A stretch of 64,000 nt of DNA, from IMG/VR virus record IMGVR_UViG_3300030294_000676; one strand, given 5' to 3'. Of the stretch, positions 11,575-44,420 are shown piece after piece. The position numbers were made by a program, and so were the translations under genes. The DNA comes from a virus (taxonomy: Duplodnaviria > Heunggongvirae > Uroviricota > Caudoviricetes). Every line of letters starts with the position of its first letter. Positions within the stretch are counted from its first letter, which is position 1. The notes under the pieces are model-generated. The model ran no database searches. It had not been told where the DNA came from and saw only the letters and a program-made list of their open reading frames with translations.

Positions 11575-13427
11575 TGAAATATAATATAAATAAATTTCAA
11601 CAAGGGGGTGGGTTTGCAACATTCACCCCCATCATTGAACAACAACCTGTACAAGCAACTTCTTCATCATCTAGTTCATCTAAAGAAAGTAAACATACTA
11701 TTTCATCTATGTTAGATGATGATGTATTTAAAGATTTAATGGGTAAAGGTTTAGTAAATGATGTTAACGGATTTGTTTCTGAATTAGCTAAAATTGAATC
11801 AACTAATTCGGGAAGTATGTATCCATATGCTCAAAGTAATAATAGAGCAATGTCATTAAGATTAGTTGGTAAAATTAATGAACTTAAACAAAGTAAATCT
11901 GCTTGAGATGAAGCTGCTAAAACAGCTACTGCTGCAGGAGGTTATGGTGAAGTTGCTGTAAATAATGATATGGTTTATGGTAAAGATGCTAAAGGAAATG
12001 TTAGTGCAATTAACGTTAACGAATACGATAAACACAAAGATCAATATAAACTATTATCTGTTGCAGAGTTATTAAATGAAAGACAATATAATCCTAAATT
12101 ATCAGGACAAAATTCAATATTTGATGTTGCAAATAATGCTATTGGGTTAGATAAAATAAAAACTAATCTTAAAGATTTAATTGCTTCTTTAGGAACAGAA
12201 GATACTCATAATGAAAATTTTTATTCTAAAGATCAAGTTAAAGGACAGTATGATATTTTAAAATCACAAGTATCAGTAAAAGGTCCAACAAAAGAACAAC
12301 AATCTGCTTTAGAAAGTTTAAATCAAATAATTAACACTCCTGGAGATCATTATAAAGTTATTACAGAAAATAGTTCAGAAAGAAATCATATTGATAAAGC
12401 TTTAGACTATTTATGAAAAACAATGGATGTTCATGCTCAACAAAAACTAAAAGCAACTGCTATAGTTAATGGTGGTAAAGATCCAAGAGATTTTATATTA
12501 GATATGTTGATTACTAATACAACTGCTAAAACATCTTCTGCGATTTCTCCAGAGAAATTACCAGGAGCTACAGAAGAAGCTTCAGCCGCGGCAAAAGGAT
12601 TAGCTAATGTATCACCTTTTGAATTATTACATAATGGCAAAACTGGTTCAGCTCCAATGCAATGAAATGATATTACAACTAATAAGAAAATGATATTACA
12701 TGTTACAGGTGCTGCAAGATTAGCTACAGAAGATGGAACTCCATTAGGTATGACTACATTTAAAAATATAATGAATTCTAAAAATGGTTCTCTTGTTGAT
12801 ATGAGTAAGGCTACATTTGGTGATAAAATTATTGGAATGAAAGGCGCTAATGATATTATTTATGATGGTGGAACTGCTGCTAAAGTATATATGCCGTCTA
12901 ATAATGATGGTACTGTTAATTATAATGCACTTAAACAATTTAATGAAGTTCAATCAGAAATTGAAAAACATAAAAATGATTGGTCTCCTGCTATAATCAA
13001 TGATTATTACAAACGTCATGGATTTGGATATGTTCAAGTTGGTAATGATTTTGTAGTACGAGAAAACAATAATATAAAACCATTCTTAATAATGTATGGT
13101 TATACTGCTGAAGGTGCTTCTGAAGCAGATAATAATTCTGAAGTTAAAGCCTTGGACAGTAAAGAACAAGATACTGTATCAGATGCTTTAAAAACAGTAT
13201 GAAAAGATAATAAAGTTAAGGCTCCTACTGGTTGAACTGATATGACAACCACTTATTATAAAGGAATGATTGCAGTTCCATATAAACGAGATGCTTCTAT
13301 ATATGCTGCTTCAATTGCAGGTCATATGCAGAATAAACAACAAAACTTAACAGATGCTAGAGTAGATCTGCAAAAATATGAAACTCCACAAGTTAAAGCT
13401 GATTTCAGTTTTTTCAATAGTAAATAA
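11574..13427 (+). CDS. Virion cargo protein, 617 aa (5 TGA=Trp)
   Basis: ORFs 11574, 11970, 12423, 12690 and 13242 are all frame 0 and joined by TGAs. N-terminus MKYNINKFQQGGGF. Ends TAA. Confidence 0.75.
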
Positions 13428-13435: not shown

Positions 13436-16400
13436 ATGGAAATTACAAAACCAAATGATATATTTTCTGCATTAGTGCAGAAACCAGATTTAAATTTATT
13501 CGATTTAGCTAGTTCTAATGTTGTTCCAAGTAATACTCAACTATTACCTATGGACGATTATAAAAAATTAGATAAAGTTCAATCGATGTTTAAAGATGCA
13601 TCTGGTAAATTCGATGACAAAACCTTCAACGCAGCTTATCAAAAAGCTGCGTCGTTGTATAATGACCTAGGAAATGATAAAGCTTTAGCTAAAGCGTTAG
13701 AATATGATCCAACAGATTTTACTGCTCCAAAAGGAGCATTACGTGCAGATGTAGCTCCAGTTATAACTAAGGATTATAATCCGTTTAAACAATTATATAG
13801 TAAAACTGGAATAAATAGTATTGATGTATCTGATTTATCTTTAAGAGAATTAGCTCAACAATCAAAAGTATATGATTCTGAATCTAAACAATGATTAGAT
13901 AAATCAGCTAATGACATGGGTTTAATGGGTTCTTTAGTGGGACCTACAATGGTTTATGCTCAGTGGGATGAAGATGGTGCTGATATAGATCCTATGACAA
14001 AAAGACATGTAAATCATAAAAAAGGTGATTGGAAATATGATAAAGATGGAAATCTTTATATTGAAACACTTGGTAAACGTGAAGTATATGGTAAACAAAT
14101 AGTAAATCCTATGGATTTAATTACTGTTGATGGTTCTAAATTAAATAAAGTAGATTTCTTTGATTCTGATGGTAAAGATAAATCTGTATTTGGGACTACT
14201 ATGAAACTTGCTACACAAGTTGCACCTTATTTAATTCCTGGAGTTAATGTATATTATGGTGGAATGAAAATGGCATTAGGTTTAGCTACTGTACTTCCAA
14301 CTTTTTATAAAGCCGCAGAAGCATTATTTACAGGTGATACTGAAAAAGGTAATGAAACATCACTATGGAAAGCAATGAATACTGCACAAGGATATCTTTC
14401 TAAATATGATGTTAGAAGTATTTCAGATGCGGGTTCACAATCTATGTGGAATTATGAACAAATGGGAAGTATGGTTGCAGATACTTTTTCACAAATCTAT
14501 GAACAACGTGCTGCTGGTAGTTTGTCTAATTTATTTTATAAGTCACATGAGACTGAATATTTAGCAAAATTAGCTAATCAAACTGAAGATATTCTTCAAG
14601 ATGTTGCTATTGGTGATGCTGTAAAAGGTATAACTAGAAGTAAAGAAAACTACGAACGTCTTGCTCAAGTTGCCTACGATAAAATTGGAACACTTGAATC
14701 TATAAATCATAAACGATCACAATTAGCTGAAACATTAAACTTAGGTTACATGGCTATGACGCAATCTGCTGATGTTTATGGTGATGCTAAAGCTGGAGGA
14801 TATGATAATAGAACAGCAGGTTTTGCTGCATTATTAGCCGCATCAGGTCAATATGCTTTAATGAAGAATAATAATTTAGGTCACTGGTTTTTAGATAAAT
14901 CTACAGGTTATACTGAAGAAGTTAATAAAGCTGGAATTAGAAGTGTTACTCGTGAATTAATGGGTGAAACACAAGAAGCTGTTAATTTACTTGCAACAGA
15001 TAAAATTGCTGGTAAAAAAGCATTGGGGAATGTATTTTCAAAAGCTAAACAAGGATTTCAAAATTTAATTACACAACCTATTGGAGAAAGTCAATTAGCT
15101 GAAAAATTATTTAAAGTATCAATGATTGAAGGTATTGAAGAAGTTTCAGAAGAACTTGCTTCTGATGCAGCTAAAGGTATTGTTGATATTATGAGTGCTT
15201 GTGGATTTACTAAGAAACAAGGTTCATTTGGAGGATTTGATAATGTATTTAGTAAATCAGGATTTGAACGTTATGTATCTAACTTAGTTGGAGGTATGGT
15301 TGGAGGACCTATGTTTGAATTAGAACATTCAGTTATATCACCTATTTTATCTGGACACGGTATTGAACAAGAAACAAAATATAATGTACTTCAACTTGTA
15401 GCTAATGGTCAAGCAGAAGATTTATATAAAGAAATTGATAAACAAAAAAGTAGATTTGGAAGTACTGATTTATCTCCAGTTACAACTAATGTAGATGGTA
15501 AACAAATTTATCTAGCTAAAGATGGTGATAGTGGAATGAGTCAAGCTGATGTTATTGCTAATGCTACTAAAGCATATATTCAAAATGCTGATAGAATTTT
15601 AAATCTTGAAAACATAAAAGAAGATGATGAATCTGTTATTAGAAAAGCAATTGTTGATGATATTAGAATTGCTGATTTAAAGAAAAACGGAACTGATTCT
15701 TTTGTAAAATCAGATTTTACTCAATTAATTGGAGATATTGTAGATCTTACTACTCAATTAGAAAATGTACAAACTGAAAAAGATGATAAAAGTGTAAATA
15801 AAAATGAAGTAGGTAAAGGTGATATTCAATCTAAACTTAATGAAAAAAGAAAGTTAGTTGAAGAATTATTAAAAGGTGAAAAGGCTGAATACTATCATAA
15901 GTTATCACTATTTACATTAAATAAAAATTTACACGCACCATTTATTTCTTTATCTGTTGACGATTATGTTAAAGATAAATATGATAAAGATTTCTATTCA
16001 CTTAGTGAATCTGAAAAGAAAACTTATAAAGCAGAATTTGATAATATATTTGATGAAAGTAAAGGTGATTTTAAAAACAAAATGAAATCAATGTTTGATA
16101 GATTTTTGGAAATTAATGAAGAGTTCTCACATTCAATTGCAGAGTTTAATGCTGATGGATATGCTAATACTAGAAGTTCATTCTTAGCTAACTTTAGAAA
16201 TAAAGGTAAAGGTTTAAGTTTAACTGACGCTTATACTAACTGACAATGATTACAACAATTAAATACTGAATTAGATAAGAATGGTTTTAGAACTGCAAGT
16301 CTTACATCTGATACTGATATTGATGTTGCTCATTTCTTAAACGATATGAATTTAATTCAAATTGGTTTACCAGAAGAACAAAAAGTTGAAATAATTAACA

Positions 16401-19400
16401 GACGTGATGCTTTAATCAATCCTAAACTTGAAGAATTAAATAAGTTAGAAGAACAATTATCTACTGTTACAGAACCAGATGAAATTAATACAATAAATGA
16501 AAAAATTGCTCCACTTCAAGAAGAAATTAATACTGATATTAATAATGCTGATGTAGAATTAAATCAAAAGAGGGATATTAATACTTTAAGTACTGGAGAT
16601 AAAGAACATTTATTTGCTATTGTAAATTCATTAGGTCTTCCGTCTACAGAGTTAGATTACGGTATTATACAAAAAGCATTTGATGCTTATAACGGAAGTA
16701 AAAATGGACGAGTAAAACAAATCATGGGTGAGAAAGAAACAATTTCTCAATCTGCGGATTTAGCTACAGAAGATGTTCTAATGCAACATTTAGCCAAAGA
16801 TAGTGAAATTACAACTATTGGGAACATTGGAACAATCCACGTTAATGGATATGAAAAGAAAGCTGTTAATAAAGATTTAATAAAATCTAAATTATTAGTT
16901 GAAGCTAATAAAGTATTAGATGAATTATCTAGTGTTACTAATGAAGATGGAATTATTAGTTTTTCTGATGCTGACCAAATTTTAGCAGACTGATTTGACA
17001 AAGATACTGATGAAGTTACTCATGATATTGTTACAGCATTAGATACTTATGTTCAAAATAAAGGAACTGATGTAACACTTACTGAAATTCAAGATGTATT
17101 CAATTCTACTGTTAAAAGTAAAATGGATCAAATATCTATCAATCAAGGAAATTCAGATCCTAAATTAGAAGAAGTTTATAATGAAGCGCTACATTCTGAT
17201 GATGATTATTATACTTTTACAAAAGGCAATGATAAGATTTCACCACGTAGATCTTTATTAATTAAATATGCTAATAATGTAATTGCTAGAGGTGAAGATT
17301 TAGATAATGAAGCGGTTAAAGAATTAACAGATGCTGCTAATGAAATTAGAGTAAATATTCAAAATAGTTCTCTTTCTGCATTAATTCCTGATTTAGATAA
17401 TTTTGAATTCGATGAAAATTCAGAATTAGGTAAAGCTTTAATTGATCGTGGATATAAAGACTATTTAAACATTCATGAAATTCTTAAATACAATAAACGT
17501 AAAATGAATACGTTTTTGGACAAGTTGAATGAGTTTCAGATAAATCTATGAGGTAAAACAGGTCCTATTTCATTCTTTAAACTATTAAGAGATAATTATG
17601 ATTTATTTGATAATATTGTAGCACCGTCTCAATTTATTAGAAATAATGTTCAAATTGATCAATTAAATAAAGCTTTATCTACAATAACTGCTGTACGTTC
17701 TGTAATTTCAGCAATGACTTCTACAGAAGTAGGATTAGGTGGTGATTTGTATGGTTATAATGTTTCATTAAATATGGCTGCTGAAAAGTTCGAAGAAGTT
17801 AGTGGAAAATTTGGATTGGTTGATAGTACGTCAGCTAAGATCATAAATGATGATTTAACTTTCATTTCAGATAAATTAAACTATTTTAAAACTCTTGCAG
17901 AAAGAAACTCTGGATCTTTAATTGAAGAACATAATTTAATCAAAACAGCATTAGTTAGTTCTATTTTAAAAAGAATGACTGATGGTTCTGAAATTTCAGC
18001 AGGTAAACTAACTGTGAATGGAAGAACTTTAATAAATCAAAATGATCTTGATGCTATTAATAAAATAGTTTTAGCTGAAAGTAAACTTGCTGAATTTGAA
18101 CATAGAATTTATACTAATTTTCATAATGCTGAAGGAAACTTGACAGACAAATTAGATGAAGTTTTTGCTCCGTTTAAAGGCAATGATAATTCTGAAAATA
18201 TTATCAAGTCAATTATTGATGGTAAGGATTCTAATCTGACAAAGGATTTGACTCAACTTGAGAAAAAAGATTGATATTTTTATTTACATTCTGTACTGGC
18301 TCTTAGTAGTAAAGATTTTTATCTAAACTATAAAAAGTTACTAGAAAATGAAGTATCTTTGTCGGAAGTAAAAGCTCCATTTTTTGTACAACAATTTGTA
18401 CAAAGACAAGAACAAGCTTATTTTAATGGTAGATTAGGAAAAGATATAATGGCTCATTCTATAGAGTTTGTACAACCTAGTATTTATACTTTAAAGAATT
18501 CTATACTTGCTGATGCAAAAGATGCAGGTACTACAATTACTGAAAAAGAAGCCTATAAACAAGCTATTGATCAATCTAGAAGTTTCTCTATTGGATATGT
18601 ATTTAATGTTCTTGGCTCTGCTGGAACAGGTAAAACTACAATTTTAGGAAACTTTCCTTTAAGAATGATAATTGATTCTAAAGTTCCGAGTGAAAATATT
18701 TCTATTCATGCTTTAGCACCAACACCTAAAACACTTACTGGATTAAAAGAGAATTTAAAGAATCAGGTATCTGTTGAAATAAAAGAAGACTTAATTAAAG
18801 ACTACATTAAAACAATGATTGGTTCTAAGTATGATGAATACATGGAACAATTAAATTTAATAGAACAAGATAAATATGATGATTTAAATCCTGAGATTTT
18901 TATAAAAGGTGAAGGAGATGGTGCAGTTGCTATAAATGAAAAATGGTTAGATTCTGTATTCTTAGGTCATAATATTGAAGGTTCTAAAATTGTAATGATT
19001 GATGAGATGAGTCAATTATCTACACTTGAATGGCAAATGTTTAATTATCTAGCTAAAAACAATAACTACTATGTTATTGCAATGGGTGATAATTTACAAA
19101 ATGGAAGTAAAATTGGTACTACATCATTTTCTACACAGAATATATCTACTCCTAGATCTATTAAACTTAAAAGTACAATTAGATCTAAGAATGTACACCA
19201 TAATGATAATTGTATTCTTATGGAGAATTTTACAGATGCTATTTATAGAGATTCATATTTGAAAGAACCTATTAAATATAGACCTACTTTAGTTTATTAT
19301 GATAAAACATTTTTAAATGGAGATAAGTTTGTAGATAATCTTACAAAAGCTGATCTTTTAAAATTAGATACTTCTAAAGAAATTGTGTTCTTAACTGATA

Positions 19401-21883
19401 GTGGTAAATTATCTGATTCAACACAATCTTTAATTACAAGTACTTTAGGTATTCAATCTGCTGACATTAAAGTTTATTCTAAAAATGTACAAGGTGAAGA
19501 ATTTGATCAAGTAGTAATTCTTGATCCAATTAAAATATCTGATTCTGATTTTGATACTATACGTAGTTTATATACTCTTGTTACTAGATCTAAAATTGGA
19601 ACTTTAATTGTTGGTTCTAAAACTCTATTAGATAATTTTGGAATTAAAACAGAAATGTCATTAAGTACAGAAGAAAAAGTATTTGATAACGATAGAGCTA
19701 AAGATTTCTTAACTAAGAGAATTGATGAATTATCAGATATGACAAAGGATTATAAACAATCTGATCCTATAAAACATAAAGATGTTAAAGTTGTAAATGA
19801 GAAATTTAATACCGATTGGAAAGAAACTTCAGACCCTGAAATAATTACTCCAATTTCTACTACTGTTCAAACTAAAGATCCTAGTAATATATTAGGATAT
19901 TCATTCTTTAATAATATTGGAATTCATGATATTTCTAATAACTTAGATAAAATAATTGGATCTGATATTGATATTGATGACTTAATAAAGAATAGTACTG
20001 GAACTGATTTAGGTTCAATTCTTAGATTAGTAAATATATCTGATCAAAGTGTTAGAGATGTTGTTGGCGATTATATTAAATGGAAAAATTTAGTATTATT
20101 TTCTACAATTGATAACACAATTTATACTAGACCTGATGATTTTAGATTATTTAATAATGATACTAAACAAAAAGATTTAGTAATAAGAAAACTTAAAAGT
20201 GGAGAGTATACTGATCCTTATGGTAAACTAGTAAATAGTAATGCTTTAAAAGGTAAAGATATTTATGTTCTTGGAATGAATGTTGAAATTGGTGGTGCAA
20301 ATCATTTTATAACTCTTTCAGCATTGCCTGATATTTCAAATCCTGCTGTTAAAGCTAATGTTGATTTCGAAAAACTTTCTAAGTTATATGATTTAGCAAG
20401 TAAAGGAGATATTACAGTTGATAGTGCTGATATTAAAACATATATGGGAGTTCAAGTTCCAACTATGAATGATGCTCAAAAAGATGCCTTTAAAAAGGAT
20501 TCTGCTATAACTGTAAAAGATTTAAAAGCTAAATTTCCAGGAGCTTTCATTAGTGAGATTAAAGTATTTAGAGGTCCAAAATATGATGCACATGGTGTAT
20601 TACAAAATGGAGATTATCTTAAATATATTAAAAAAACAATGGAAGAATACAGACAAACTCCTTATAATACTCAAGGTAAGAATGAAACTAATGATGAATT
20701 CACATTAAGAAACTCGGAAGAATATTACAACCGATATGCTTATAGACCTTATGTTACTATTGAATATGTTAAAGGAAATATTAAATATTCTAAATTAGTT
20801 GTATTAAATGCTAAAAGTAGAACTTTAAGTGAAGCTTGAACACAAATAACTACAGCTGATACAGAACTTAAAGCTGATAAGAAATTAAAAAATCAAGAAC
20901 ATCTTGCTGACCATGAAACAGATGTAGATGCTAAATATAAAAAATTAGCATTAATGTCTAAATATACTGGATGGAAAGTATTCTATGATTTCTTAAAATC
21001 TGAACAAGTTGCTGGTAAAAACATTGATACTATTATTGATGATATGGTTAATCATATTTCTTGGAAAAATTATTTATCTAAGAATGATTTAGAATCATTT
21101 CATATTGTAGAAACTTTAATGGATTTAGGGCGATTTATAAACAATGATGCATCAACTCAAAAAACTTTTGATGATTTATTAGAAAATCCTAAATTAAAAT
21201 CCATAATCGGAAATAGATTTAGAGATGTTATACCTGTTAAAATTCCAAATCCTTTATATGTTATACATAATATAATGACAGAAGGTAAATCTCAATACGA
21301 AGATACTGTAACTAGATTTAATAGTTTTGTTCAAACTTATGACAAACCTATCTATTACAATACTATTATTGATTCTCCTGCTGTTAGTGGTGAATTTGAA
21401 GGTAAATTACCAGTATCTACTAATAATAATTATGAAATGCAATATCCTGTTGAACCTAATCAAATTATGTTAAATATGGATAAAATATTAAGTAAGATTG
21501 GTGGAAACGAAGTAAATACTAATAATGTAAAAACTGAACCAACATTAGTTGGAGTAGAAATACCAAATCACATATCATTTGATTTTGAAGGTAATACATT
21601 TGGAGTTCCACTTGGTAATTTGTTTGACAAAGCAAAAGATGTTGAAAAAAGTAAAGCTGTAGTAAGCAAAATAATAAATGGATTTATTGATCAAAATTAT
21701 GATGATTTAGATGTTGAAAATGGAGTGTTAAAGATGGACGGATTAAATATAACTAGTGCCCTAAGTTCATTATTTGAATTAGGTCCTGATAAAAATGTTC
21801 AACTTAATAAAAACAATTCATTAATCAAAAATCTAGTATTAAGTGGATTAAATGATAATAACCAATACAATTGTAAATTTTAA
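13436..21883 (+). CDS. Giant virion protein 1 (2815 aa, 7 TGA=Trp) with SF1 helicase-like P-loop domain
   Basis: Seven track ORFs lie in one frame joined by TGAs. Motifs GSAGTGKT (18614), MIDEMSQL, AMGDNLQ, QGEEFDQVVI and LYTLVTRS. Ends ...YNCKF-TAA. Confidence 0.8.
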
Positions 21884-21890
21884 ATAAAAA

Positions 21891-24800
21891 ATGAGTAAAT
21901 GTTCACAAAATTTTAAAGCAATAATCAAGAAACTGAATGGTGCCAAGGGGATAGAACCCCTTGGTATTTTCGGTTCTGATTTAGTAGATAATGAAAAATT
22001 AAATGAAGAAATATCTGCTGCGTCAGATTTTATATTAAAGGGAATAGAAGAATCTCCTGAAGCACGGGTGTATGATTTCAATTCGTTATATTTATCAATG
22101 TCAAAGTTAAACAAACCTAACTTAACTTCTGATAATATTAATGAGATTATATCTCAAGTTAGATATGGACTATCTAAAACATCTGGATCGTTATCAACTA
22201 ATCCAACTTTAATAGATGCTTCAAATATAGCAAAACTATTAAAACATGATAAATCACTTGAAAATTTTTTAGATTCTGAATTAGAGTACGCTATGTATGC
22301 TGTTTCATTCGTTAATAACGATAACAGGGATAACGGATTTAATAACTTTGTAGTATCTGATTTAGCATTGGAACATAATATCTTTGTTTATAAGAATGAT
22401 ATTTGAAAATATCTAACTAAAGTTTCAGGAGTAACTGAAGTAAAAGATTCTAATCTGTATAATACAGATAAAGATTCTACTGGATCTCGTGCATTTAGAT
22501 TGAATCCTGATTTATTTTTTCCAGATACAGATGGTAAAACACCATATTCTAAAGTATTAGAATCAGTAACAACTAAATTTGAAGCTTTAGATAAATATAG
22601 TATTGATACTAAAGGTATTTCAACTACATCAGGATATATAAGAATGTTGATTCTTACAAATTTTGATAAATTAATGTCAGAAAAACATGGAGATGTAATA
22701 AATGTAAATCCGGATGGGATGAATACATATGCACCTCCTTCTAATAGTGAATTTAAATATACATTAAAATTTAAAGGAGCATCTACTTCAACATGAGCTT
22801 CTGATTCAATAGAAGGAACTGATGTATCACATCATACTTCAAGTTTATTTAAATTACTTTCTAATATCATCCCATTCAAACAACACAATGTAATTGAAGA
22901 ATCTGAAGAATCAAATGGAGATAAAACTTCAGGATATTTATTTGGAAATAATCGTATTACATTAGGAACAACTAGTGTTAATGTTATTGGAGCAGTAATG
23001 AATTCATTACCTCAAGACTTAACACTTAATATTAAAGGTTCAAAACTAACAGTTGATGAAGCATTTGAAAGACATGAACGTGATAATAACGATATACCAT
23101 TCAGAACAATATTAAAAGCTTTAGTAAATGAATCTGATAAATATGATGATTTAAGTATCATTAAAAATTATATGTATAGTATTCATGATTTCTTATATCA
23201 TAGAGATACTGGAGTTGTGGGATTATTTAATGAATGGAAAGCAACTAATATCGGTATATCTGATAAACCAATTGATATTGAACAAATATTAATTCACGCT
23301 ATAAGAAATACAGTTAAAAATACATATAGATCGGAAGATGTAGAAGGAAATGGTACAACTGTTGACAATCTACATATGGATACTAAAGTAGGTGTGGATT
23401 TCAAACAACTTGTAAATAATACAGTTTCTTATAAGCAAAAACTTAAAACAGATTCTACTATATTTAGAGATGCTGATTTTTCTACTTATGGTGGAGTATT
23501 TGCATTTATTGATAAATATGCTGATATACAGTTATCTAAAGAAAGTAAAGAATCATTTTTAGGTTCTACTAAATCTGAATCAGATCCATTAACAGCTAAT
23601 ACTAGAAAATCATTAGAAAATCTTTTAATGAAAGATATTAAAGTTATGAATGAAGATGTCTCTTTAGCTGATAGAGTATTAACTAATGATGAAATTATAG
23701 CTAAACTACAAGAAGATAATGTATCTAAAGAATTTGACTTTAAAAAGTTATTTAAATTAAGACATCAAGAAGAAAAATATAACGTTGTAACACAAGTTAA
23801 AAGTTCGGAAGGTGATTCATGACCAACTATGTCAATTGCTTATGTTGGAGCATTAACTGGAAGATTATTAGCTAAAGCAAATGCTAATACTTTCTTTAAA
23901 CAAAATCCTAATCTAATAAAAGGTACTGCTATTATAAGTGAAGTAGTTGGTAAAAATGAAGCTAAATCAATTGATGAATTAAATTCAAAAGATTTATTTA
24001 AACTTGCATTTACTAGAAATTTCTTAATGTCAAGTATTAATGAAGATAGAATGTTTATTCAACCTTGGAATTTTTCTGATAAAGGTAAGATATTAGCTTT
24101 AGAAATTAATTCAAATGTTACAGATAACTTAGGTGGAACACTAGCTAAATTATCAAGTGATGAATTAAAATCTCACTTTAAACAAAATCAATTACAATAT
24201 TATACATCAGTTATAAATAATATTCATGCTGATTTATTATTGATTGATAATTCATCTTCATTATCTACAGTACGTGATCCTAAAGATAAAATTAGTCAAA
24301 TTGAAGAATTCTTTGAAAAAAATACTAGTGTTAAAGCTATTGAAAAATTAACAAGATCTTATACACATAATCATAGTAATGATGATAATTTTAGAAATCC
24401 TGAAATAGTTAGAGATTTACATTATTCTGAATATTCAGTTGATGGTAAAAAGGCTTTGAAAATTAATCAAGCTCTTAAAACTAATTTCATGATATTTAAT
24501 GATCAATCATTATTTAATGAATGGAGTAAAAATATGGAAGGAAGTTTAGCTTCTTGAACATTAGAAAATACACATATTTCTCCAAAAGAAATCAAATTAA
24601 ATACTAAATTCGAAGGAACTTATCATGTTAAATCTGAACACATTGCTGAACAAATAGCTAAACATTTTAATATAGATGTTGATGATATTTTTGATTATAA
24701 TATGGAAGATGGTAAAAGAATATCAGTTAGTAATCTTAAATTGAATAATGCTGATGGTACTGAACTATCTGAATTAGGTAGAAAATATATGTGGTCTAGA

Positions 24801-27800: not shown

Positions 27801-30800
27801 AGTTATCTTTGAGATACTGGTGGATATCGTGATAAATTAAGAGAAAGTAGAGCTAAAGACAGTTATGTGTTTAACTTGAAAAATACTATGTTTAATTCAT
27901 GGAAAATGTCTAATCTATCATTAAGTGCTCGTATTCCTGCACAAGCTTATCAATCATTTATGTCTATGAATACTGTAGCATATACTCAAGAACACTTGAA
28001 TAATGCATTTGTATCTCACTGACAATTATGGTTACAAGGTTCTGACTTTGATATTGATAAAGTTTATATGATGATGTATGATTATAGAAATGGTTCTTTT
28101 GAAAAATGATCACCATTCTTTGATTTCTCATCTGATGATAACGTTAGAGATTCTTTAAGACTTCCTGCACCTAATGGAAAGGAATATACTAGAGGAAAGT
28201 TTGAAGGCGAAACATTTGTTATTCCTACAACCATGAATCCATTTAGATTAAAAGAAAGAGCTGATATTTATAACTATTTGAAAGATCATCCTGAAATTAA
28301 ATATATTGATAGTGAAAATGATTTAATTGCTGATAAATTTATTAAACAATTATCTAAACATAATAAATACAATAATGAAAATGGATTTAAAAACTTTGTA
28401 GTTAATAAGTTAATTGCATTAAGTACTAGTCCTAGAAATCAAGTTGCATCTTATTCTCCAATCTCATTTGGTAAGTATACAGAAATTGGTAAGAAAATTG
28501 ATGGTTCTTATGCTTTAAGTAATTATGATGGTCATACAACATTCTTACAACAAGAACAAAATGCTGTAGGTAAAAAAGTAATTGGAGCTGCTGCTACAGG
28601 ACTTAAAGATTATTTTGCTTTAGTTACATATTATTCTAATTATTATAATGGTGAAGTAACATCAGAAGATAATGAATTCTTTAGTAGAAACTTTCATATT
28701 TTAGGTAAGAACTACAATCTTAAAAAGATTGGAGGATTAAACTTAACAGAAAAAGCAACTAAAACTTTAGAAGATATTGTATATAAAAATCTTAAAGAAG
28801 TTAATCTAACTAAGAAAGATGGATCTTTATTTAACGATGAAGAGAAATTAGAGTTATCTAAAGTTCTTGATGAAAATGATCCGGCTTTAAATATATCTGC
28901 TTTATTATCTCTTGCAACTGATAATGCTAAAGAGTTAATGTTAGCTAAAATTAATGCTGGTATAGATTTTGCTTCAATGCATATTTATATGTTAGTATTA
29001 GGAATGGATGAAGCACTTATTGGTAAATTTATGACTAGTGATGATGCGTTAAAAATTAAAGCTGCTTTACAAGAAGACTTCTTTAAATCTGGTAAAAGTT
29101 CATCAATTGATGCACAATTAGGAAAACTTAATCCTGCTAAAGCTGGAATTAATAAAGCTTATTTTGATGAGTTTATTAAAATTTATAACTATTCTAAAGA
29201 ACTTAAAACTTTGGGTGGATTACTATCTGCTAATCAAGGTATTAAAGCTTCTGAAATTGATATATATAATATTGTTAGAAAAATTAATTCAGTTGTTACA
29301 TCTCAACAAAATACAATATTTGAAGAAGTTAAAACGGATTTAAATAATGTTAAAAAACAATGAAATGAAGCATCTTCATCTGAACAAACTTTAATACTTA
29401 AAGAATTTAATAAAACTTTATTACCTGAGTTAGTTAGAATAATTAAAACTGACAAACCTCATTTATCAGAAGGTTATATTAAAGGAAGATTATCTGATGC
29501 TGTATTAGCTGGAATTGTATTTGGTGGAGTTGATATCAATCGTTATTACGAAAGTATGGATCATCCTATTACAACAGAACCAAGATATTTTGAAGCTGTT
29601 ACAGGTTATTATAATTTATTGAAATATACATTCAATGTATTAGATGTTGTAAATAAGTTACCTCACTTTAATGGAATGTTGAAATCATTTAATTATAGTG
29701 AAAAAACAATGAGAACTGATATTAATAAATATGCTTTCGTTACTGATTTTACTCATGCTTTAGTTGATATAGGTAGAGATAATGGTGAATTAGACCATAA
29801 AGATATTGTTAAACAAACAAGAGCAATGTCAAATATCGATAATTCTGTACAACTTAGAGAAAAAGTACTATCTGGAGCAGGTGATGCTTATGATAATTAT
29901 GTATCACAAGAATGGCTTAAAAATTTAAATTTACAATTAGACATTGTTCAAATCATGAAATACTTAAATATAAAAGAGATGAATATACTCGATCCTGATA
30001 AACAAAGGATTAGTACTTCTGAAATTAAATTAAGTACAGATCCTGATACTAAAGAAGAATCTTTAAATACTCCTTATAGAATTATTGATCTTGGAACTGA
30101 ATTTGGATTAGCACAATACAAATATATTATGGAGAATTATTTAATTAATTCACTTAAATCTAAATTTAAGAGTAATAACTTCTTAAAAGATTATAAGTTT
30201 GGAAACAATAAAATATTCAATATGCAACGTCAGATTAAATTCTATGATGATAAATCAAATCATAAAATAATGACTAAGATTCAACATGGTCTCAATTTAT
30301 TTAATGAAAATCGTGATGATAAATATAATTTAAATATCAAAGTATCTCAGACTGATCCTGGATCAAATAAGTACAATTCTGAGAATATTAGAGCTTTAGA
30401 TTTACTATATTTGTATAATCATTTAGTCAACGAAGGACGATTTGGTGGAAATAGAGCAACTATATTTTTCTCACAAGATATGGAAAATCCTAACACTTTC
30501 TCAAGAAAATTCGTAGAATTCCAAAGGATGATGGACTTAGATAAAAATCTAATCCCAAAATTAATGGATAGAATTAAAACTGATAAAGATTTTAGACATG
30601 TATTATATTTACAGATATTTGGAAAGAGAGATTTAGAACAAAAATCTGTAGCTAGATCTCAAGATATGTCTGATATTGAAAATCCAGTTGATATTGTTGA
30701 TTCTGTTAAGAATAGATATTATACTTTATTAGACTCTTTAGATGAATCTGAAATTGCTAGTGAGGAAAGAAAGAATTTAGAAAAACAAATTTTAAATAGT

Positions 30801-30845
30801 CTAACATCTATAAATGGTGTATTAGAAACTAAATGTAATAAATAA
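21891..30845 (+). CDS. Giant virion-packaged DNA-dependent RNA polymerase (2984 aa, 12 TGA=Trp)
   Basis: Frame 0 is open with TGA=Trp. Catalytic region ARIPAQAYQSFM...QLWLQGSDFDIDK (DFDID at 28044-28058, missed by the ORF track). Also LFDL-W-EAFGGA, FLPESAVKNG, GIQLDAGH and RRKFRGAAMVLNPS, typical of crAss-like RNAPs. Confidence 0.9.
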
Positions 30846-33800
30846 TGAGTTGTGAAATAATACTTAACGTTGGAGGTAAGAAATATAATTTAGGTTCAGT
30901 TGAAAAACCTGTTACTGATATTAATGAAATTAAAAAATTATTATCAGGTAGAAGTTTGGATGAACTTAAATCAATTATGGAAATGCTTCCACAATTTGAT
31001 TCAATTGAGAATATTGAACTTACAAACATTAATGAAAATTCCGTGGGGCTTTACAGCCCTGCGGAGTTGATTAAAGATAAGAATGTAATTAAATTAATGC
31101 AAGGACTTAATATTCCTAAACCATCATGGACCTCTAAAATGGTTATTGCTGGAATTGCAAATGAAAACGTAAAAACTCAATTTCATAAAGGTCATATATT
31201 TTTAAATCTAAATTATGCTTATGATGAACAAAATAAGATAATGGCTTTAACTGAGTTGGCATTAAATTTATACGATAATGATAATTACATTAAAAACTCT
31301 GAAACTCTTAGAACTGGTACTGATGCACAAAGAACTGAGATATTAAATAATATAATTAATCCAGGATTTGGAGATAAATCTAAATTACTTAGTAAATTAT
31401 TATTTGTTTATAATGAAGCATCTTATAAAAATACTATAGATGTTAACGGTGTATCAGATTTAATAAATACAAGAGATTCAGCTTACACTATAAAATCTAA
31501 CTTTGAAACTAAAGTATTAAAAGAAAATCGTGATTATTATTATCAACCTGCTGAAAAAACTCTAATTAAAAATCTTAGACAAGGTGATTTAATTGGAGTT
31601 AAATTTGGAGATAAAACTATTTATGAAATCTTTTTTGATTATAAAGTAGATACTGATGGTAATAAAGTTATTACTACAATTTCAGGTGGGGATGGATTAA
31701 CAACACGTAAATCATTACTTAAATCAGATTATATATATTCTAGAAAAGTTGATGATACTACAATTAAACCTGTATACAAATCAAGTAAAACTGAATCTGA
31801 ATTATCTATAAATAAATTTAGTAAAGTTAAGTGAGGTACTATGCTTGATTTAATTAAATCTGGTAGAGTTAAAGTAAAAGTTGGAAGAAGTAAAACGTAT
31901 AGAGAAATTTCTGAAATAAATGGTTCTATGTTAACTGTTAATGGAGAACAAGTTCCAGTAAGTGATATTAAAAACTTTTCAATCGGAACAGATGTTGATA
32001 CAAATACATTTAAAAGTCATACGATTTCAGAAATTGAAAATAATGATGCTTGACAACCTGTACAATTTGGAGTAATGAATGGTGCACACGTTCTTGTTAA
32101 AGAAGATGATAAACTTGTTGATGCTATTGTATTAGCTCATGGTACTAGTCAATCTGATGCAGGAGATAAGAAAATTGTATATTATTTAACTAAGAACAAT
32201 ACTGTAAAATATGTTATGGAAAATAGTATTAAATATGTAACTTCTCCAAGTATTGATCATGTTATATCAGCTACTGAAAAGGTTAGTGTTAAACAATCAA
32301 TTAGTGATGTGTTTAAAACAGATTCAAATGGTAAGATATTAGATAACATGCAAGAAATATTTCTTAGTCCAAAGAAAAATAATCATGGAGCTTTTAAAAA
32401 TTCAGAATTTTCTATAGAGCAAATTAATAGTCAATCTACAATTAATAAAGATGATTTTATATATGATACTTCAACTGGTAATGTATTAAAAGTACTTGAA
32501 TCAGCTTATGATCATATTAAAACATCATCTGAGTTTGGAGGAGTTAATCGTTATATTGATGTAGCTACATCAGATTTAAATTTATCAAGATATTTATTAT
32601 TGAGTAATAAATCACAAAATGAATCTTTTGCTCAAGGTTGAATAATTAAAAACAGATTTAAACTTGGAAACACTCCTAATATAACTAATACTAATAGTCA
32701 AGAAGTTAAAGTTTATCAAAGTAAAACAGGTTATGTTTATAGTAGACCTATATCTGAATCTAAATACGAATCATCTGATATAGATATTACACAGAAATAT
32801 AAAGAGTCTTTAGCTGAACGCTATAAATGAAATTCAATTCCCGATAAACTTTATATGTATGAAGGTAATCCTATTAATGGACAAAAAGGTATATTAAAAG
32901 ATGATTTTAATACAGTAAAAATTGCATTGGATAATACAAGTTTTGATAAAGTATTTCAATATATAGTTCCAGGTTCTTATTTACTTGTAGAAGGAAACGC
33001 TAAACCTTTTATTGTTGAGAAAATGATTGGAGATAAACTATTAGTTTCTGCATATCATTATTCAAATATTCCTAATGTTGGAGACGATAGTAAAATAAAT
33101 CATGTTAAAGCAGAACGATTTTTTATTGGAGTAGATGCTACTAATATAAAACAATTGTTTTTACCAAAATGAGCAACCGATAATTTTGAAAAAGTTAAAG
33201 ATGTTGTTACTCAAAGTAATCCTTCTAAGAGTTCATATGTTACTGCTTACAGTAAATCTGATTCAGTTGAAATAGTTAACGCTATGATTGATGTTCTTCA
33301 AAATAAATTCGGAGTTCCGATCAATATTATTACAAATGATGATTTAAAAGACTTTACACATTTAGATGTAAATAATTCTGCGGCATTTGTTTATGAAGGT
33401 GGAGTTTATGTAAATGTTGATAAAGCTGGAATGGAAGAACCATTACACGAGATTCTACATTTAGTATTAGCTACAATGAAAAGTAATGATTCTGATTCTT
33501 ATTATAGAATTGTGAATTCAGTACAATATCATCCTATGTTTTCAGAAATATCTAAGAGTTATAATGGAGATATAAATGCTGATAAATTAGAGGAAACTTT
33601 TGTTAAATTATTAACAATGACAGTTAAAAGCAATATTAAACCTGATGAATTATTTACTGAGAAAGTATTTAATGAATCTATTAAAAAATCAATATCTGAT
33701 TTATTAAATTTAGATGCTGATTTAAAATGAGAAGATTCAATAGATTTATTAGGTCAACCAATTGATAGTATAATGACTCAGTTTGGTTCTAAATTAATAG

Positions 33801-33913
33801 GTGCAGAAGATGGATTAATTGATACTACAAACGCATTTGAAATGTTTAATGTATCAGGAAAGATAAAACAATTAATAAAAAATGATCAACTGATACAAGA
33901 TTGCAGTTATTAA
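30845..33913 (+). CDS. Giant virion protein 3 (1022 aa, 6 TGA=Trp) with zincin-like HExxH metallopeptidase motif
   Basis: Five track ORFs are in frame. EPLHEILHLVL at 33437-33469 with downstream EETFVK, preceded by AAFVYEGGVYVN. Starts MSC and ends CSY-TAA. Confidence 0.8.
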
Positions 33914-33924
33914 AATAAAATAAA

Positions 33925-36900
33925 ATGGATAAATGTAAATACTATTTAAATATAGACGGATTTAATGCAACTTTTAATTCGGATAAAGAACTAACAGATT
34001 TTGTTAAGAACAATCTGGATAAAGAAGTGGGTGTAAAACACAGTAGATCTGAAGATACACTAACCCAATCTTTACAAGACTTAACTTTAAATGTGTTAGA
34101 AGATAATACAGCAAAATCAAATATCGATCCTAAAGTATCTGATGGATTAACACCTTATAGTTTTATAAAACTTACACATAATATAAACGGGGAAGAGAAA
34201 TTACTCTCCCCCGAATTTATTGAAGCAAATTTTAAAAAGAATCAATTAGCTTTATTAAAAGTTAAATATCCTAATGAATCTGCTGCTGTTCTAATGGCAA
34301 GAGTTAATTTAAATTTATCTCTTGATAATAGAATGATGGAAATGAGTAAAATTGGTTCTAATCTTGTAAGATTGGCTTTATCTGATGCTGGTAAATTATA
34401 TAAGGATAAAGATATTGATATGTATTTAGAGAATCTTATGAAAGAGATTCATAATTATAATCAATTTGCATCTAAAGAATTTGATAAATTAGATGGAACG
34501 TCTAACTTTGAGAAAAAAGAATTTAATTTAGACAATTACAAAATAGCGATTGCTACACTTAAAAATGATTTAATTGTTTGAGGTAGAAAAATGCAATCGT
34601 CTAATAGTATTATTAAAATAGGTCAATCTGTAAACAGTACTGCTAATCATATGAATGGAAATATTCATGTATTAGAAATTGATGATAAAGGAATTCCTAA
34701 TTTATATGAAATTAAAGTTTCAAGAAATAAATATTCTGATTGGGATTCATCTAAGAAATTAGAAACTGATTATATTTTAGGAATAAAACGTCAGTTGTTA
34801 GATAGTTATGTTGATACAGCTCAATCTTCTTTAAATATACTACAATTAATTGTTCCTAAAAAAGGTAATAATATTGAAATAAATCCTAACGCTATTACAT
34901 TAGAAGAAATTTCAGACAGATCAAATTCATCATCAGGATTAGAATATAATTCAGGTAATATGAGTAATGATTTAAGAACTCTTATTCCTTCTAAAATCAA
35001 AAGGGATCATTTATCTACTACTGATTTAGATTCTGAAATTGTTGATACTTGTAAGATTGCATTTCCTGCTTATGATTATAAAACTAAAACAAAAGGTAAA
35101 TCTGTTGAAAATTTAGTTAAAGAGGCTATTGCTCGTTCAGAAGGTCAAGCTAAGATTTATATTGTAAATAATTTAAATACTGAAAGGATTGAAGAAGATA
35201 AAACTAAACTAGGTTGGGAAGAAAGATTTCAAGCTAAAGTTGAAGATTATGTAACAAAATGGACTAATGCTAAAGATAGTAAAATGAATGACCTTGTTAA
35301 GTCATTTAAAGCTGCTAAAAATAAAGAACATGGAATTCTTATTAATGGTAAGGAAGCTCCAATTCAAATGCAAAGAGTACTTAATAAATATTTAACACCT
35401 GAATGGGAAATAGTAAATGATGAAAATTCAATTCCTGAATTATCTCATGCTGGTGTATTATTATTTAGAAACATTAATACTCGAAGTGTAGAAGCTATTG
35501 CAATTACTATTAATGCTTTAGATCAAGTTAATGAATTTACTAGAGGTAATACTATTTTAGGTAAATTTAAACCTAATAAATCATTAGCTAATGATAGTAG
35601 AATACTTACAGCAAGTACAGCTAATATTGAAATAATGAAAGCTTTGACAGTATTAAATGCTTTAACTGATAACTTAAAAGGTTCAACAATTAATAATGTA
35701 TCTGTATATAACTGATTCAGTGATAAAGCGGATTTTATTCCAATTGATAAAGCTATTCATAATTTTAATTTATTAGGTGATGAAATTGTAAAAGTTAAAT
35801 CTGATTTTAAAAACAATTTTAAAACAGGAAATTTAAAAGCATCTGATATGATGAAAACCATATGAGGTGAAATTTTATCTAAAGCTGGTAATATTGATAA
35901 TTCTGCGTTAAAAACAACAATTGCTTCATATCGTCAAGATGATGAAGAAATGTCTACAGCTAATGATAAATTACAATGGTTTTTAAAGTTTAGAAATGAA
36001 CTTCTTGATAAATATGGAAACAGTCTTCAAAATAAAGACCAAACTGAAATTCAAGATTTCTCAGACCCTTTGAATTATATATACTATCTTGTATCATTAG
36101 GTGTATCATATTACACTAATTTAAATGATACATTTGATTATGCAACTCCTAGATATGGAATTAGAATTGGTGATGCTACTGATTGAATTAGAACTATGGT
36201 TATGGGAACATCTCCAGAATATGATAAGAATGGTAATAAGATTGTAGGTTTATTTCAAGGTCAACATTTCAATACTGCCGATGCTCTACAATCACAAGCT
36301 ATGACTCGTTTACACGGTATGATTACCATTGCACATAACAAAATTGCTTCTGAATTTAATAAAGAATCTGCTTCAATTGTAAGTGCAACTAATAAATACT
36401 ATGAAGCAATAGGTCGTTCTACTCTTCAAAAAATAATTATTGGAGATGCTGATCAATATCACAAAGTTTTCTTTGAACAACATAATGGTGTTATTGATAA
36501 TGATTTTAGATTTAAAAATCCATGAGATCTTAAATCTAATCTTGATAATCCTCAAAGAGCTTATTTAGAAACAGTAGTATTCAATATGTTTAAATATAGT
36601 CCTATAAATAAATACAATATTGAAACATTAGAAGAATTTAAAAAGCACGAAAACTTTAGTGAATGAACATCTATTGGATCTGATTTATTTAAAGCTCCAC
36701 TTGTTAAGAAAATGAGTTTAAGTAAATGAAAATCAATTACTACAGATGGTTTTAGAAAAACTGTTGGTAAATTCTGAGATGATACTAAAGGTTTATTAGA
36801 TCCTAGAGATATTACAGAAGAACAACGTGTTGAATCTTATGAATCAGTTAATGGATTTAAACGTATGTATAATCAATTTAAAAATACTAATGACAATTAT

Positions 36901-38595
36901 AGATTAAGTTTAATTGAAAAATATGGAGTAAATGCTTTTGAAGTAAACTTAGATGTTATTGGTTTAAAATATGCTTTTGAAAATATTAGAGAAAAACACT
37001 TTAATACAGTACTTCCTAATATACATTCTGCATTAACAGTAATGAAGTTTCACGGATGAAGTTCAGGAAAGACTAAAGAACTTACAGAAGCTCTTGAAGA
37101 TTTCTTTAATCAAATGAAAACTGCTGTATATGGTCAATCGTTAGTAGCTGATAAAGAAGGTGCAGAAGCATTAGCTGTTATTAAAAAGGTACAAAAAATA
37201 TCGAGTTTAATGGCAATTTCATTAAGACCTGCATTATTAATTAAAGAGTTACTTGTTGGAACAGTTAAGAATACATCTTATGCATGAAGTAAAATTTATG
37301 GAGATGATAGTTTTAATGGAGATCATCTTGCAAAAGCTTATAAATTAGTATTAGATCCTAATAAAGAAACATATGCCTTAAATGAAGCTATCAACTTAGA
37401 AATGCGTTTTGCTAATCAAGATTTAAATCACATTGTTGATAGAAAGAAAGTTGATAAATTCGGATTTAACTTCTTGGGTGAAAATATGTATTGATTCAAT
37501 ACTGCACCAGATTATGTAAATCGACTATCCTTATTATTTGCAAAAATGATTCATGATGGTTGTTATGATGCACATAGTTTAAATTCAGAAGGACAACTAC
37601 AATATGATCCTTCTAAAGATAAAAGATATGCTCATTATTTTAAAAATCGCGAAGCTAATGGATATCAATATAATGCATCTGATGAATTATACAATAAACA
37701 ACGTAGTTTGTATTTAACTATAATTGACGAGTTTAATGGTGAGAATTCTTCGTTTGGTGAAAAACTTTTAACTGAAAAAGATAATATTCCATCAGCATAC
37801 ACATCTAAAGAACGTGGTAGTATTAAGAATTTTTCTGATATGGCTTATGGATTTTATGATCAAGATATGTCACCTTTGATTAAACATACTGCAATGGGTA
37901 TTATTTTTGGACAATTCTTAACATTCTGACCATCTAAAGTTAAATATTATTTTGGTAAACCTGATCAAAAATCTCCTAGAGGTTATATGGGTCAAAAGTT
38001 TACAATTGATGATAATGGAAATAAAATTCTATATTATCAAAAAATGACTACTGATGAAAATGGTAAACCTGTAATTGATGAACAAGGTAATTATGAAATG
38101 CAAGAAGTAACTAAAGATCAATTAGGTTCTAAAGATCCTATTATTCCTGCTAATGCTTGAATTGGTTCTCCTAGTGAAGGTTTAATGTATTCATTAGGTT
38201 TAACTATTAGAGCTCTTGCTACTGGTGATTTAAAGAATACTGATCCTCAAAGATTAGCTAATGCTAAAGTTGCGTTACATGATTTATTAATCGCTATGAT
38301 GATGATTTGATTAGGACATATATTAATGTCTAAAGGAGAAGATGGTATGAAACCAATGAAAGAAATGTCTCAATACGAACAACTAGCTACTAAAGTAGGT
38401 ATGAAGAGTTTTGGGGAGTTTGATCCATTTGGTGGTGTATTTGGAGCATTAAGTTGAGAACCAGCTTTTGCTTCAATTATGACTAATACTATGACCGATT
38501 TTAAGAGTGTACTTGCAGGTAAATCTGATTTAGTTACGTTTTTAAGAGGTAATTGAAATATGATGGAAATCTTACCAACTGTTGATAGAAAGTAA
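33925..38595 (+). CDS. Giant virion protein 4 (1556 aa, 16 TGA=Trp), degenerate PD-(D/E)XK-like domain near the N-terminus
   Basis: Frame 1 is continuous with TGA=Trp to TAA 38593-38595. Includes FKNP-W-D, APDYVNRL, MIHDGCYDAHS, YTSKERGSIKNFSD and GQFLTF-W. Confidence 0.8.
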
Positions 38596-38640
38596 AAAAA
38601 AATCCCCTAACCGTTAAGGCTAGGGGATTTTCTTGTTTTA
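38596..38640. terminator. Bidirectional intrinsic terminator between the convergent arms
   Basis: AAAATCCCCTAACC-GTTAA-GGCTAGGGGATTTT, flanked by an A-run on the left and a T-rich tract on the right, between the stops at 38595 (+) and 38638 (-). Confidence 0.8.
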
Positions 38641-44165: not shown

Positions 44166-44420
44166 TTAAACATTAAAAGATTCTAGTATCTTTTCTTTAG
44201 ATACTGAACCTACAGTTTTACCCACTTGTTGATCATCTACAAAATAGATGATTGTTGGAATATTACGTACATTGTAATATCCTACTAGATTATTATCGTC
44301 TTCATCAATGTCGATGTGTTCAATAACAATATCAGTTTCTTTTCTCAATTCGATAAGAATTTTATCGACAGTTTTACATGGAACACACCAATCGGCTCCG
44401 AATTTAATTAGTTTTCGCAT
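44166..44420 (-). CDS. Thioredoxin
   Basis: IKFGADWCVPCK...YNVRNIPTIIYF...GKTVG. Confidence 0.85.
   Translation of the reverse strand: MRKLIKFGADWCVPCKTVDKILIELRKETDIVIEHIDIDEDDNNLVGYYNVRNIPTIIYFVDDQQVGKTVGSVSKEKILESFNV

Follow-up and report, generated by a model that had tools for sequence, protein, structure and literature searches.

Paired cysteines at the facing ends of giant virion cargo proteins in a divergent crAss-like phage and across Crassvirales

The window analysed here, a stretch of 64,000 nucleotides from the IMG/VR virus record IMGVR_UViG_3300030294_000676 (Caudoviricetes; the source phage genome record is 112 kb long and estimated to be 63% complete), contains at 13436-38595 four consecutive genes for giant proteins, designated P1 to P4, which are the virion cargo and RNA polymerase (RNAP) block of a very divergent crAss-like phage. 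Cysteine is depleted in these proteins except at the ends by which each of them faces its neighbour in gene order, and the question raised by the locus is why the residue is kept at precisely these positions and what the facing residues do. The pattern is real, it extends across the order Crassvirales, and it follows the splitting and fusion of the cargo genes one for one. From it we infer, with a probability of roughly 0.6, that the proteins are joined head to tail by intermolecular disulfides into a redox-cleavable pseudo-polyprotein of ejected cargo, which would thread through the tail.

Cysteine positions in the four proteins

Under code table 11 the region 13436-38595 falls into about 20 open reading frames (ORFs). 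The sole in-frame stop within the four long frames is TGA, which occurs 7, 12, 6 and 16 times in P1 to P4, respectively (41 in total), and all four frames terminate at TAA. With TGA read as tryptophan, the region resolves into four consecutive plus-strand genes that together encode 8,377 residues and are separated by gaps of -1 to 11 nucleotides. In what follows, the cysteine near the C-terminal end of an upstream protein is termed the donor and that near the N-terminal end of the next protein the acceptor.

The first member of the series, P1 (2815 residues, TGA=W ORF at 13436-21883, plus strand), has a donor cysteine only (Cys2813, codon at 21872-21874), which is located at position -3 within the ending C-K-F-stop. 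P2 (2984 residues, 21891-30845, plus strand), a virion RNAP homolog as judged by profile alignment with hhalign, has an acceptor at Cys4 (21900-21902), a donor at Cys2982 (30834-30836, position -3) and one internal cysteine, Cys1113. The zincin-motif cargo protein P3 (1022 residues, 30845-33913, plus strand) contains no cysteine other than its acceptor, Cys3 (30851-30853), and its donor, Cys1020 (33902-33904, position -3), the latter closing a conserved tail of the form L-I-x-x-[GN]-x-L-x-[EQ]-x-C. The last member, P4 (1556 residues, 33925-38595, plus strand), begins M-D-K-C-K-Y-Y-L, with the acceptor at Cys4 (33934-33936), and has no C-terminal cysteine. The three pairs of facing ends thus read YNCKF-stop/MSKC, TKCNK-stop/MSC and QDCSY-stop/MDKC.

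The complete set of cysteines consists of residues 589, 1926 and 2813 of P1, 4, 1113 and 2982 of P2, 3 and 1020 of P3, and 4, 376 and 1213 of P4, that is, 11 in 8,377 residues, six of which are found at the three junctions (position -3 upstream and position 3 or 4 downstream), with none at the N-terminal end of P1 or the C-terminal end of P4. Random placement of 11 cysteines would fill six given windows of five residues with a probability of about 8e-14, and the same six hits have a probability of about 9e-8 under the terminal cysteine rates of 246 other ORFs from the loci surveyed below (5.3% near the N-terminal end and 8.5% near the C-terminal end). The initial annotation, a reading of the letters of the window, had given this cysteine count with its coordinates, the free outer ends and the cysteine-free interior of P3, and independent re-derivation returned exactly the same values.

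The pairs across Crassvirales and at gene splits

Among the closest relatives, M-x-C at the start and C-x(1-2)-stop at the end are shared by all of six P3 homologs with 31-81% identity. M1, C3 and C1020 are invariant in seven homologs with 32-81% identity. The contigs that encode these homologs retain the four-gene order and have a cysteine on both sides of all three junctions; one RNAP homolog of 3,049 residues contains exactly two cysteines, one at each end, and all seven true P4 homologs start M-[DKS]-[KN]-C-K-Y-Y-L and lack a C-terminal cysteine. A profile search with the P3 family retrieved 556 relatives among 1.84 billion cluster representatives, and the ends were scored in the best 150 of these together with the starting set. 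Where the family C-terminal end was reached, a cysteine was found at -1 to -4 in 106 of 106 sequences, and where the start was reached, at position 3 or 4 in 30 of 30. In some members the zincin-like domain is followed by a further domain of about 200 residues, yet these too have exactly two cysteines, one at position 3 or 4 and one as the final residue, which ties the cysteine to the chain end rather than to a domain. The flanks are also conserved in a comparison of 125 donor and 107 acceptor ends: L-[IL]-x-x-[GN]-x-[LI]-x-[EQ]-x-C is the pattern of the donor, M-x-C-x-[YNI]-x-[IL]-x-[IL] that of the acceptor, and each shows the alternation typical of a β-strand.

The initial annotation had proposed that a cysteine pair should appear at every split of the RNAP gene cluster across Crassvirales, and this is what the comparison yields, relatives of the order included. 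The survey comprised 26 crAss-like genomes or contigs: the clade of the window, MT835470, MT835492, Steigviridae (PhicrAss001 and relatives, DAC15, cr111_1, cr108_1, IAS virus, phi14:2), Intestiviridae (p-crAssphage, crAss002, ctbg_1, cr11_1), Suoliviridae (cr50_1, cr1_1, cr109_1, cr118_1, cr60_1, cr7_1) and Flavobacterium phage Fpv1. Cysteine is present on both sides of all 47 junctions (94 of 94 junction ends), at donor offsets of -1 to -9, mostly -2 or -3, and acceptor positions 3-5, and is absent from all 19 free N-terminal and all 26 free C-terminal ends (0/45 combined; Fisher p 1e-37 against the junctions). The internal density of cysteine is 0.093% in 154,832 residues of chain proteins, compared with 1.34% in the 246 control ORFs. 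Both cysteine codons are used at the junctions (TGT 84 times, TGC 10 times).

The rule holds in phages whose cargo no longer aligns with the proteins of the window. In PhicrAss001, gp47 (2341 residues) has one cysteine, at -3, the polymerase gp50 has Cys5 and a cysteine at -9, and gp49 (1349 residues) has one cysteine, at position 5. The gene for gp47 lies on the strand opposite to those for gp50 and gp49, which excludes an artefact of gene adjacency, translational coupling or nucleotide sequence as the cause; indeed, in PhicrAss001, DAC15 and IAS virus alike, the donor gene is on the opposite strand and lies apart from the acceptor gene. The three consecutive proteins of phi14:2 total 5,398 residues and contain four cysteines, all of them at facing ends, and Fpv1 encodes a protein of 4,401 residues whose single cysteine is at -2, the next protein starting MAC. 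As to the cysteines within the RNAPs, P2 Cys1113 (25227-25229), Cys1140 of the RNAP of locus L005 and Cys1334 of PhicrAss001 gp50 are located at a roughly similar relative position, and one internal cysteine is kept in many RNAPs.

Also significant is the observation that the cysteine pairs match the gene splits in number. Where the upstream protein is fused to the RNAP (Suoliviridae, Fpv1), or the RNAP to the downstream protein (Intestiviridae), a pair is found only at the remaining junction. Conversely, extra splits gain an extra pair, as at the boundary between P3 and P4 in the clade of the window and in MT835492, in which the upstream protein (P1) is cut in two. No cysteine pair is present where RNAP genes are broken by inserts with LAGLIDADG or HNH-like homing endonucleases; these inserts, interruptions at the RNA level, are probably group I introns. 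They measure approximately 0.9-1 kb (locus L001, 14247-15308; L056, 14326-15245; L046, 4390-5218).

One apparent exception, the fused RNAP of crAss002 with its first cysteine at residue 35, is accounted for by its annotation, which begins 32 codons before an in-frame M-S-C start, and the terminal-cysteine rule can in this way guide start-codon annotation. It suggests the start codon for two fused RNAP genes, crAss002 gp33 (locus L064, 13088-13184) and cr11_1 gp66 (locus L074, 13148-13190), although in cr11_1 the annotation already uses the M-S-C start, which the first in-frame ATG precedes by 14 codons. A separate observation concerns a smaller cargo protein of Intestiviridae, which sits upstream of the chain and has a single cysteine near its C-terminal end (p-crAssphage gp47, locus L061, 1588-4161, ending QSCR-stop; crAss002 gp30, locus L064, 2393-4066, ending FRCGGKKKIA-stop), while the protein that follows it has no matching acceptor.

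A proposed covalent link between the facing ends and its alternatives

A possible geometry of the junctions is suggested by a natural fusion, P0131 (2,006 residues), in which a zincin-like domain (residues 110-264, E 3e-27) is continuous with a P4-type protein (residues 436-1942, E 4e-30 and 3e-53). The donor tails of the separate proteins, L-T-E-K-C-N-Y/G-stop, align with L344-T-K-A-E348-N-G350 of P0131, such that Glu-Asn-Gly stands in place of the donor Cys-Asn-Gly/Tyr-stop, and the fusion contains no cysteine between residues 5 and 1407. The chain continues Y-I-L-E-G-H-L-F-K-S-E-Q-E-L-D-E-F, which resembles the start of P4, (C-K-)Y-Y-L…F-N-S-D-K-E-L-T-D-F; this acceptor-side register, the same in all eight members, rests on weak local alignments (z 0.6-3), because MAFFT misplaced the N-terminal fragments of P4 twice. 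In an AlphaFold2 (AF2) model of P0131 residues 96-480 (mean predicted local distance difference test score (pLDDT) 69.9, predicted template modelling score (pTM) 0.62), the last helix of the zincin-like domain is followed by a strand (L344-A347), a turn (E348-N349), a second strand (G350-L353), a third strand and a helix, all with a local pLDDT of 90-91. The model of a full-length P3 homolog is of low confidence (pLDDT 58.8, pTM 0.31); in it, an N-terminal hairpin starts at Cys3 and no structure is predicted for the C-terminal tail. Taken together, the alignments and models suggest a split β-hairpin, in which donor tail and acceptor head supply one strand each and the two cysteines are placed where the fused form turns.

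Docking of the facing ends was given weak support by co-folding residues 790-1022 of the P3 homolog with residues 1-330 of the P4 homolog, both from the nearest relative and each supplied with its family alignment. The score was 0.56 (runs of 0.58, 0.49 and 0.56), compared with 0.00 for the best control, with a pLDDT of at least 73 for the partners and a run-to-run agreement of contacts of at least 37%. This score, for which the output listed no individual contacts, lies in the weak band of the calibration. Of 80 solved complexes, 58 reached the pass mark, as did 2 of the 110 pairs that were mismatched; only 7 of the 80, but both mismatches, reached it with a score of 0.60 or below.

In the proposed mechanism, two neighbouring proteins would build a β-hairpin between them, one strand being the C-terminal tail of the upstream member (…L-x-E-x-C) and the other the N-terminal strand of the downstream member (M-x-C-x-Y-x-L…). 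The cysteines at the would-be turn would form an intermolecular disulfide in place of the peptide bond that a fused polyprotein, ancestral or alternative, has there. One covalent chain would result, of about 8,400 residues in the phage of the window and of three proteins in PhicrAss001 and phi14:2, and its members would be packaged 1:1. The cysteines would be oxidised to disulfides in the virion, the chain may then travel through the tail channel as a single, partly unfolded thread that delivers its members jointly and in order, and the reducing cytoplasm of the host could subsequently separate them, by analogy with two-chain toxins, whose cytosolic reduction is the basis for the release envisaged here. 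Such a chain could thread the channel because the stubs beyond each bridge are very short.

An intramolecular bond is not possible in gp47 and gp49 of PhicrAss001 or in the 4,401-residue protein of Fpv1, since each of these has a single cysteine. In PhicrAss001, gp47, gp49 and gp50 are virion proteins assigned to the unresolved cargo zone of the capsid, intermolecular disulfides exist in the virions, and the cargo must partly unfold to pass constrictions of less than 50 Å (PMC10172136). In its boldest form, to which we give somewhat less than even odds, the proposal would have a thread of 0.7-1 MDa pass the tail with only tiny side stubs, single disulfides acting as β-turn bonds that are cut by host thiol reductases, and peptide bond and disulfide interchanging freely in evolution, at the same sites, through gene fusion and gene splitting.

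Several points weigh against a disulfide-linked chain. The oxidation of the terminal cysteines is a prediction from sequence and models, and the host cytoplasm is reducing and the gut anaerobic, which puts the time and place of oxidation in question. In the PhicrAss001 clade the donor cysteine of the RNAP is 7-9 residues from the chain end. One motif is common to the donors of P2 and P3 and to the acceptors of P3 and P4, and enforcement of the order is thus unexplained. Among the structural arguments, the acceptor-side register of P0131 derives from the weak alignments described above, in a part for which the AF2 input contained no alignment rows; the P3 homolog model is too poor to place both ends; and the co-fold passes in a weak band. 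In addition, Bayfield et al., who ran virion samples both with and without reduction, make no mention of a high-mass cargo species. Recombinant phi14:2 RNAP, moreover, shows activity by itself.

The alternative that survives best, although we consider it unlikely, is that the disulfide pairs form but serve assembly, either in a locked, folded RNAP holo-complex or in equimolar co-packaging, with no thread passing through the tail. The rule of splits and fusions demands covalent coupling only and is silent on threading, disulfides found elsewhere in PhicrAss001 virions act as structural staples (PMC10172136), and the co-fold would suggest a docking of folded domains. However, a staple at an interface could sit anywhere, whereas the cysteine is always 1-9 residues from the chain end whatever the domain, as expected if a channel can be passed only by chains whose free stubs are short, and the partial unfolding needed at the constrictions of less than 50 Å (PMC10172136) also speaks for a thread.

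It is rather improbable that the two thiols jointly bind a metal ion, a shared site for which the initial annotation had also allowed, or that they stay free within a non-covalent docking motif. A reducing cytoplasm at the time of assembly would favour thiolates, but each junction offers two cysteines only, with no conserved histidine, aspartate or further cysteine beside them at the 125 donor and 107 acceptor ends, and the natural fusion replaces the pair by a Glu-Asn turn instead of other metal ligands. Nor does a purely hydrophobic docking need cysteine in proteins that are otherwise purged of it.

A different pairing of the same residues, as homodimers through two donors or two acceptors, or as rings closed between the N- and C-terminal cysteines of one protein, is very unlikely. 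Sequence alone cannot set the partners of a cysteine, and the RNAP and P3 each have one at both ends; yet donor and acceptor come and go together at splits and fusions, with 0/45 at the outer ends, and many members (gp47, gp49 and the large Fpv1 protein among them) have a single cysteine. In the two-protein systems, cyclisation would leave both cysteines unpaired.

Even less credence is given to an unrelated chemistry, in which the cysteines would be lipidated, act as catalytic nucleophiles in self-processing or protein ligation, or anchor the proteins to DNA or to a further component of the virion. Precedents exist in the C-terminal cysteine of eukaryotic prenylation and in the N-terminal cysteine of lipoproteins and inteins, but the donor offset of -1 to -9 has no CaaX register, signal peptide and lipobox are absent, and attachment to a third partner leaves the strict polarity of donor and acceptor unexplained. 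Two specific candidates of this kind were considered and rejected. Against CaaX prenylation or a lipoprotein signal, the residues after the donor cysteine are polar and the offset is variable, with the acceptor cysteine at positions 3-5, just after the initiator methionine. A split intein or trans-splicing element would have no room for a HINT fold in the 0-8 residues after the donor and the 2-4 before the acceptor (47 junctions).

An origin by chance, by composition or by a signal in the nucleotide sequence where genes meet, such as translational coupling, which the tight gene packing (gaps of -1 to 11 nucleotides) and a TGT codon as AT-rich as the genome might have recommended, is refuted by the survey (94/94 against 0/45, in addition to the probability of about 8e-14 in the window), by donor genes on the other strand in PhicrAss001, DAC15 and IAS virus, by the use of both TGT and TGC, and by the variable offsets, and its probability is negligible.

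The cargo module and its known counterparts

The domains of the four proteins correspond in outline to the helicase, RNAP and zincin labels given in the initial annotation; for its fourth label, a nuclease-like P4, the correspondence is weak. Residues 1722-2054 of P1 form a helicase-type P-loop domain (Pfam AAA_30, AAA_19, UvrD_C_2) with the Walker A motif GSAGTGKT at 18614-18637 (plus strand). P2 contains the catalytic metal-binding motif DFDID of two-barrel RNAPs at residues 2052-2056 (28044-28058, plus strand), which is also described in phi14:2 gp66 (bioRxiv 10.1101/2020.03.07.982082), and the P2 profile of the window clade aligns with an RNAP profile of PhicrAss001, phi14:2, DAC15 and cr111_1 over 308 columns (hhalign, probability 97.7%, E 1.6e-12). 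In P3, the zincin-like HExxH motif is HEILH at residues 868-872 (33446-33460, plus strand), with H868, E869 and H872 invariant in the family; the zincin fold is putative, the P3 homolog model being of low confidence, and the phi14:2 polymerase likewise has a zincin-like neighbour protein. With hhalign, P4 weakly matches proteins like PhicrAss001 gp49 over their C-terminal portion, and a weak PD-(D/E)XK-like region lies near residue 262. It also contains the sole strongly hydrophobic, transmembrane-like segment in P1-P4, at residues 1449-1469 (38269-38331, plus strand; Kyte-Doolittle, 19-residue window, score 1.83), close to the C-terminus that forms the free end of the chain.

The sequences are otherwise remote from known proteins. 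Searches of PHROGs and Pfam gave no match for P2-P4 and only the helicase P-loop for P1, phmmer found no match of P2 among PDB sequences, a scan of viral contigs with P3 found no relatives, and tblastn against a phage collection returned MT835470 and MT835492 only. In BLASTP of the window proteins against PhicrAss001, the muzzle protein alone was matched and no cargo protein. In hhalign comparisons of P1 and P3 with upstream or downstream profiles of Steigviridae there was no match, which leaves P2 as the one protein clearly linked.

The muzzle match is a protein of 1419 residues at 373-4632, which corresponds to PhicrAss001 gp44 (BLASTP E 2e-9) and to phrog_15100. The cargo block follows this gene and a group of cysteine-free ORFs, and is itself followed by minus-strand genes for a thymidylate synthase, a ligase and an exonuclease. 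The five cargo-like ORFs upstream (4625-13427, plus strand; 379, 192, 98, 1302 and 617 residues) contain no cysteine in 2,588 residues, which fits the cysteine depletion reported for ejected proteins of N4-like phages; amid them lies a gene for an HNH homing endonuclease with 18 cysteines in CxxC repeats (5848-6495, plus strand; PHROG 1271, E 8.5e-25). Directly after the cargo block, on the opposite strand, is a lysozyme or transglycosylase-like gene with two TGA codons (38638-39345, minus strand), and homologous loci have glucosaminidase or lysozyme genes at the matching place. The reading of TGA as tryptophan is used across the late plus-strand arm (373-38595), while the minus-strand replication genes (39480-64000) almost never need it; stop-codon recoding is confined to the late genes.

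The early, or replication, arm also encodes a thioredoxin-like protein of 84 residues with a WCVPC active site (44166-44420, minus strand; Pfam PF00085, E 4.4e-16), and thioredoxin genes are also annotated in p-crAssphage, cr111_1 and cr108_1; a tie between these genes and the redox chemistry of the cargo is possible. Looking for an Erv1/ALR sulfhydryl oxidase in the record of the phage gave no information, as control genomes gave no match either.

No phages are more abundant in the human gut than Crassvirales. The storage and ejection of the crassvirus cargo, approximately 5 MDa of protein that includes the RNAP by which infection is started, are an acknowledged gap in knowledge: no cargo can be seen in the PhicrAss001 electron cryo-microscopy map, and the N4 paper of 2026 describes the crassvirus ejection proteins as still to be resolved (PMC13434306). 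Full-text literature searches found no description of the terminal cysteines, and these residues are unmentioned in the PhicrAss001 atlas, in the phi14:2 polymerase paper and in the N4-type papers of 2024 and 2026, as are both termini and cysteines in the phi14:2 structure preprint (bioRxiv 10.1101/2020.03.07.982082). The cargo module is of a known kind, and the terminal-cysteine linkage proposed for it is undescribed. A strict sequence rule that predicts which protein ends touch provides a first concrete model of how the cargo is organised and accounts for the free fusing and splitting of the cargo genes; PhicrAss001, DAC15 and phi14:2 are cultured phages, so that the model can be tested directly on virions. 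If correct, it would represent a new viral route for the delivery of a multi-protein machine, and a natural interchange of disulfides and peptide bonds as the links of a chain.

The closest counterpart is the block found in other Crassvirales, gp47-gp50-gp49 of PhicrAss001 and gp67-gp66-gp65 of phi14:2 (GenBank Phi14:2_gp078-077-076), which resembles that of the window in its terminal cysteines, in its giant two-barrel DFDID RNAP with giant flanking proteins, one of which has a zincin-like HExxH motif, and in its place downstream of muzzle, tail and smaller cysteine-free cargo genes. The proteins of these blocks are found in virions and are expected to be ejected (PMC10172136; bioRxiv 10.1101/2020.03.07.982082), and the structure of the phi14:2 RNAP is PDB 6VR4, cited by Drobysheva et al. 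The block of the window differs in being barely alignable with these (RNAP core only), in comprising four proteins rather than three and in using TGA for tryptophan, and its presence in virions is predicted.

The cassette of Schitoviridae (N4-like phages) shares with this module an RNAP that is packed in the virion and ejected before or with the DNA, its domains arranged like beads on a string, and consists of a single-chain virion RNAP of 3,500 residues (N4 gp50, DEV gp71) together with gp51/gp52 (gp72/gp73). The N4-type enzyme is, however, one polypeptide, essentially free of cysteine and of a different RNAP fold, whereas the crAss cargo consists of several polypeptides that keep cysteines at their facing ends. 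The strong cysteine depletion of N4-like ejected proteins has been explained by their passage through the periplasm (PMC11445570; PMC13434306), and it is against this purge that the cysteines retained in the crAss cargo stand out.

The structural disulfides of PhicrAss001 (gp57 dimer, tail hub and ring proteins; PMC10172136) are intermolecular bonds between crassvirus virion proteins, but they staple folded subunits of the capsid vertex and tail, are not located at termini and involve no cargo.

A functional parallel, by analogy only and with no homology, is provided by two-chain toxins. In diphtheria toxin, clostridial neurotoxins and ricin, two chains are held by one interchain disulfide through membrane translocation and are parted by reduction in the cytosol. 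These toxins arise by nicking of a single precursor, and their bridge is not at the termini; in the crAss cargo, by comparison, a series of as many as five separate gene products would be joined at their ends within the virion.

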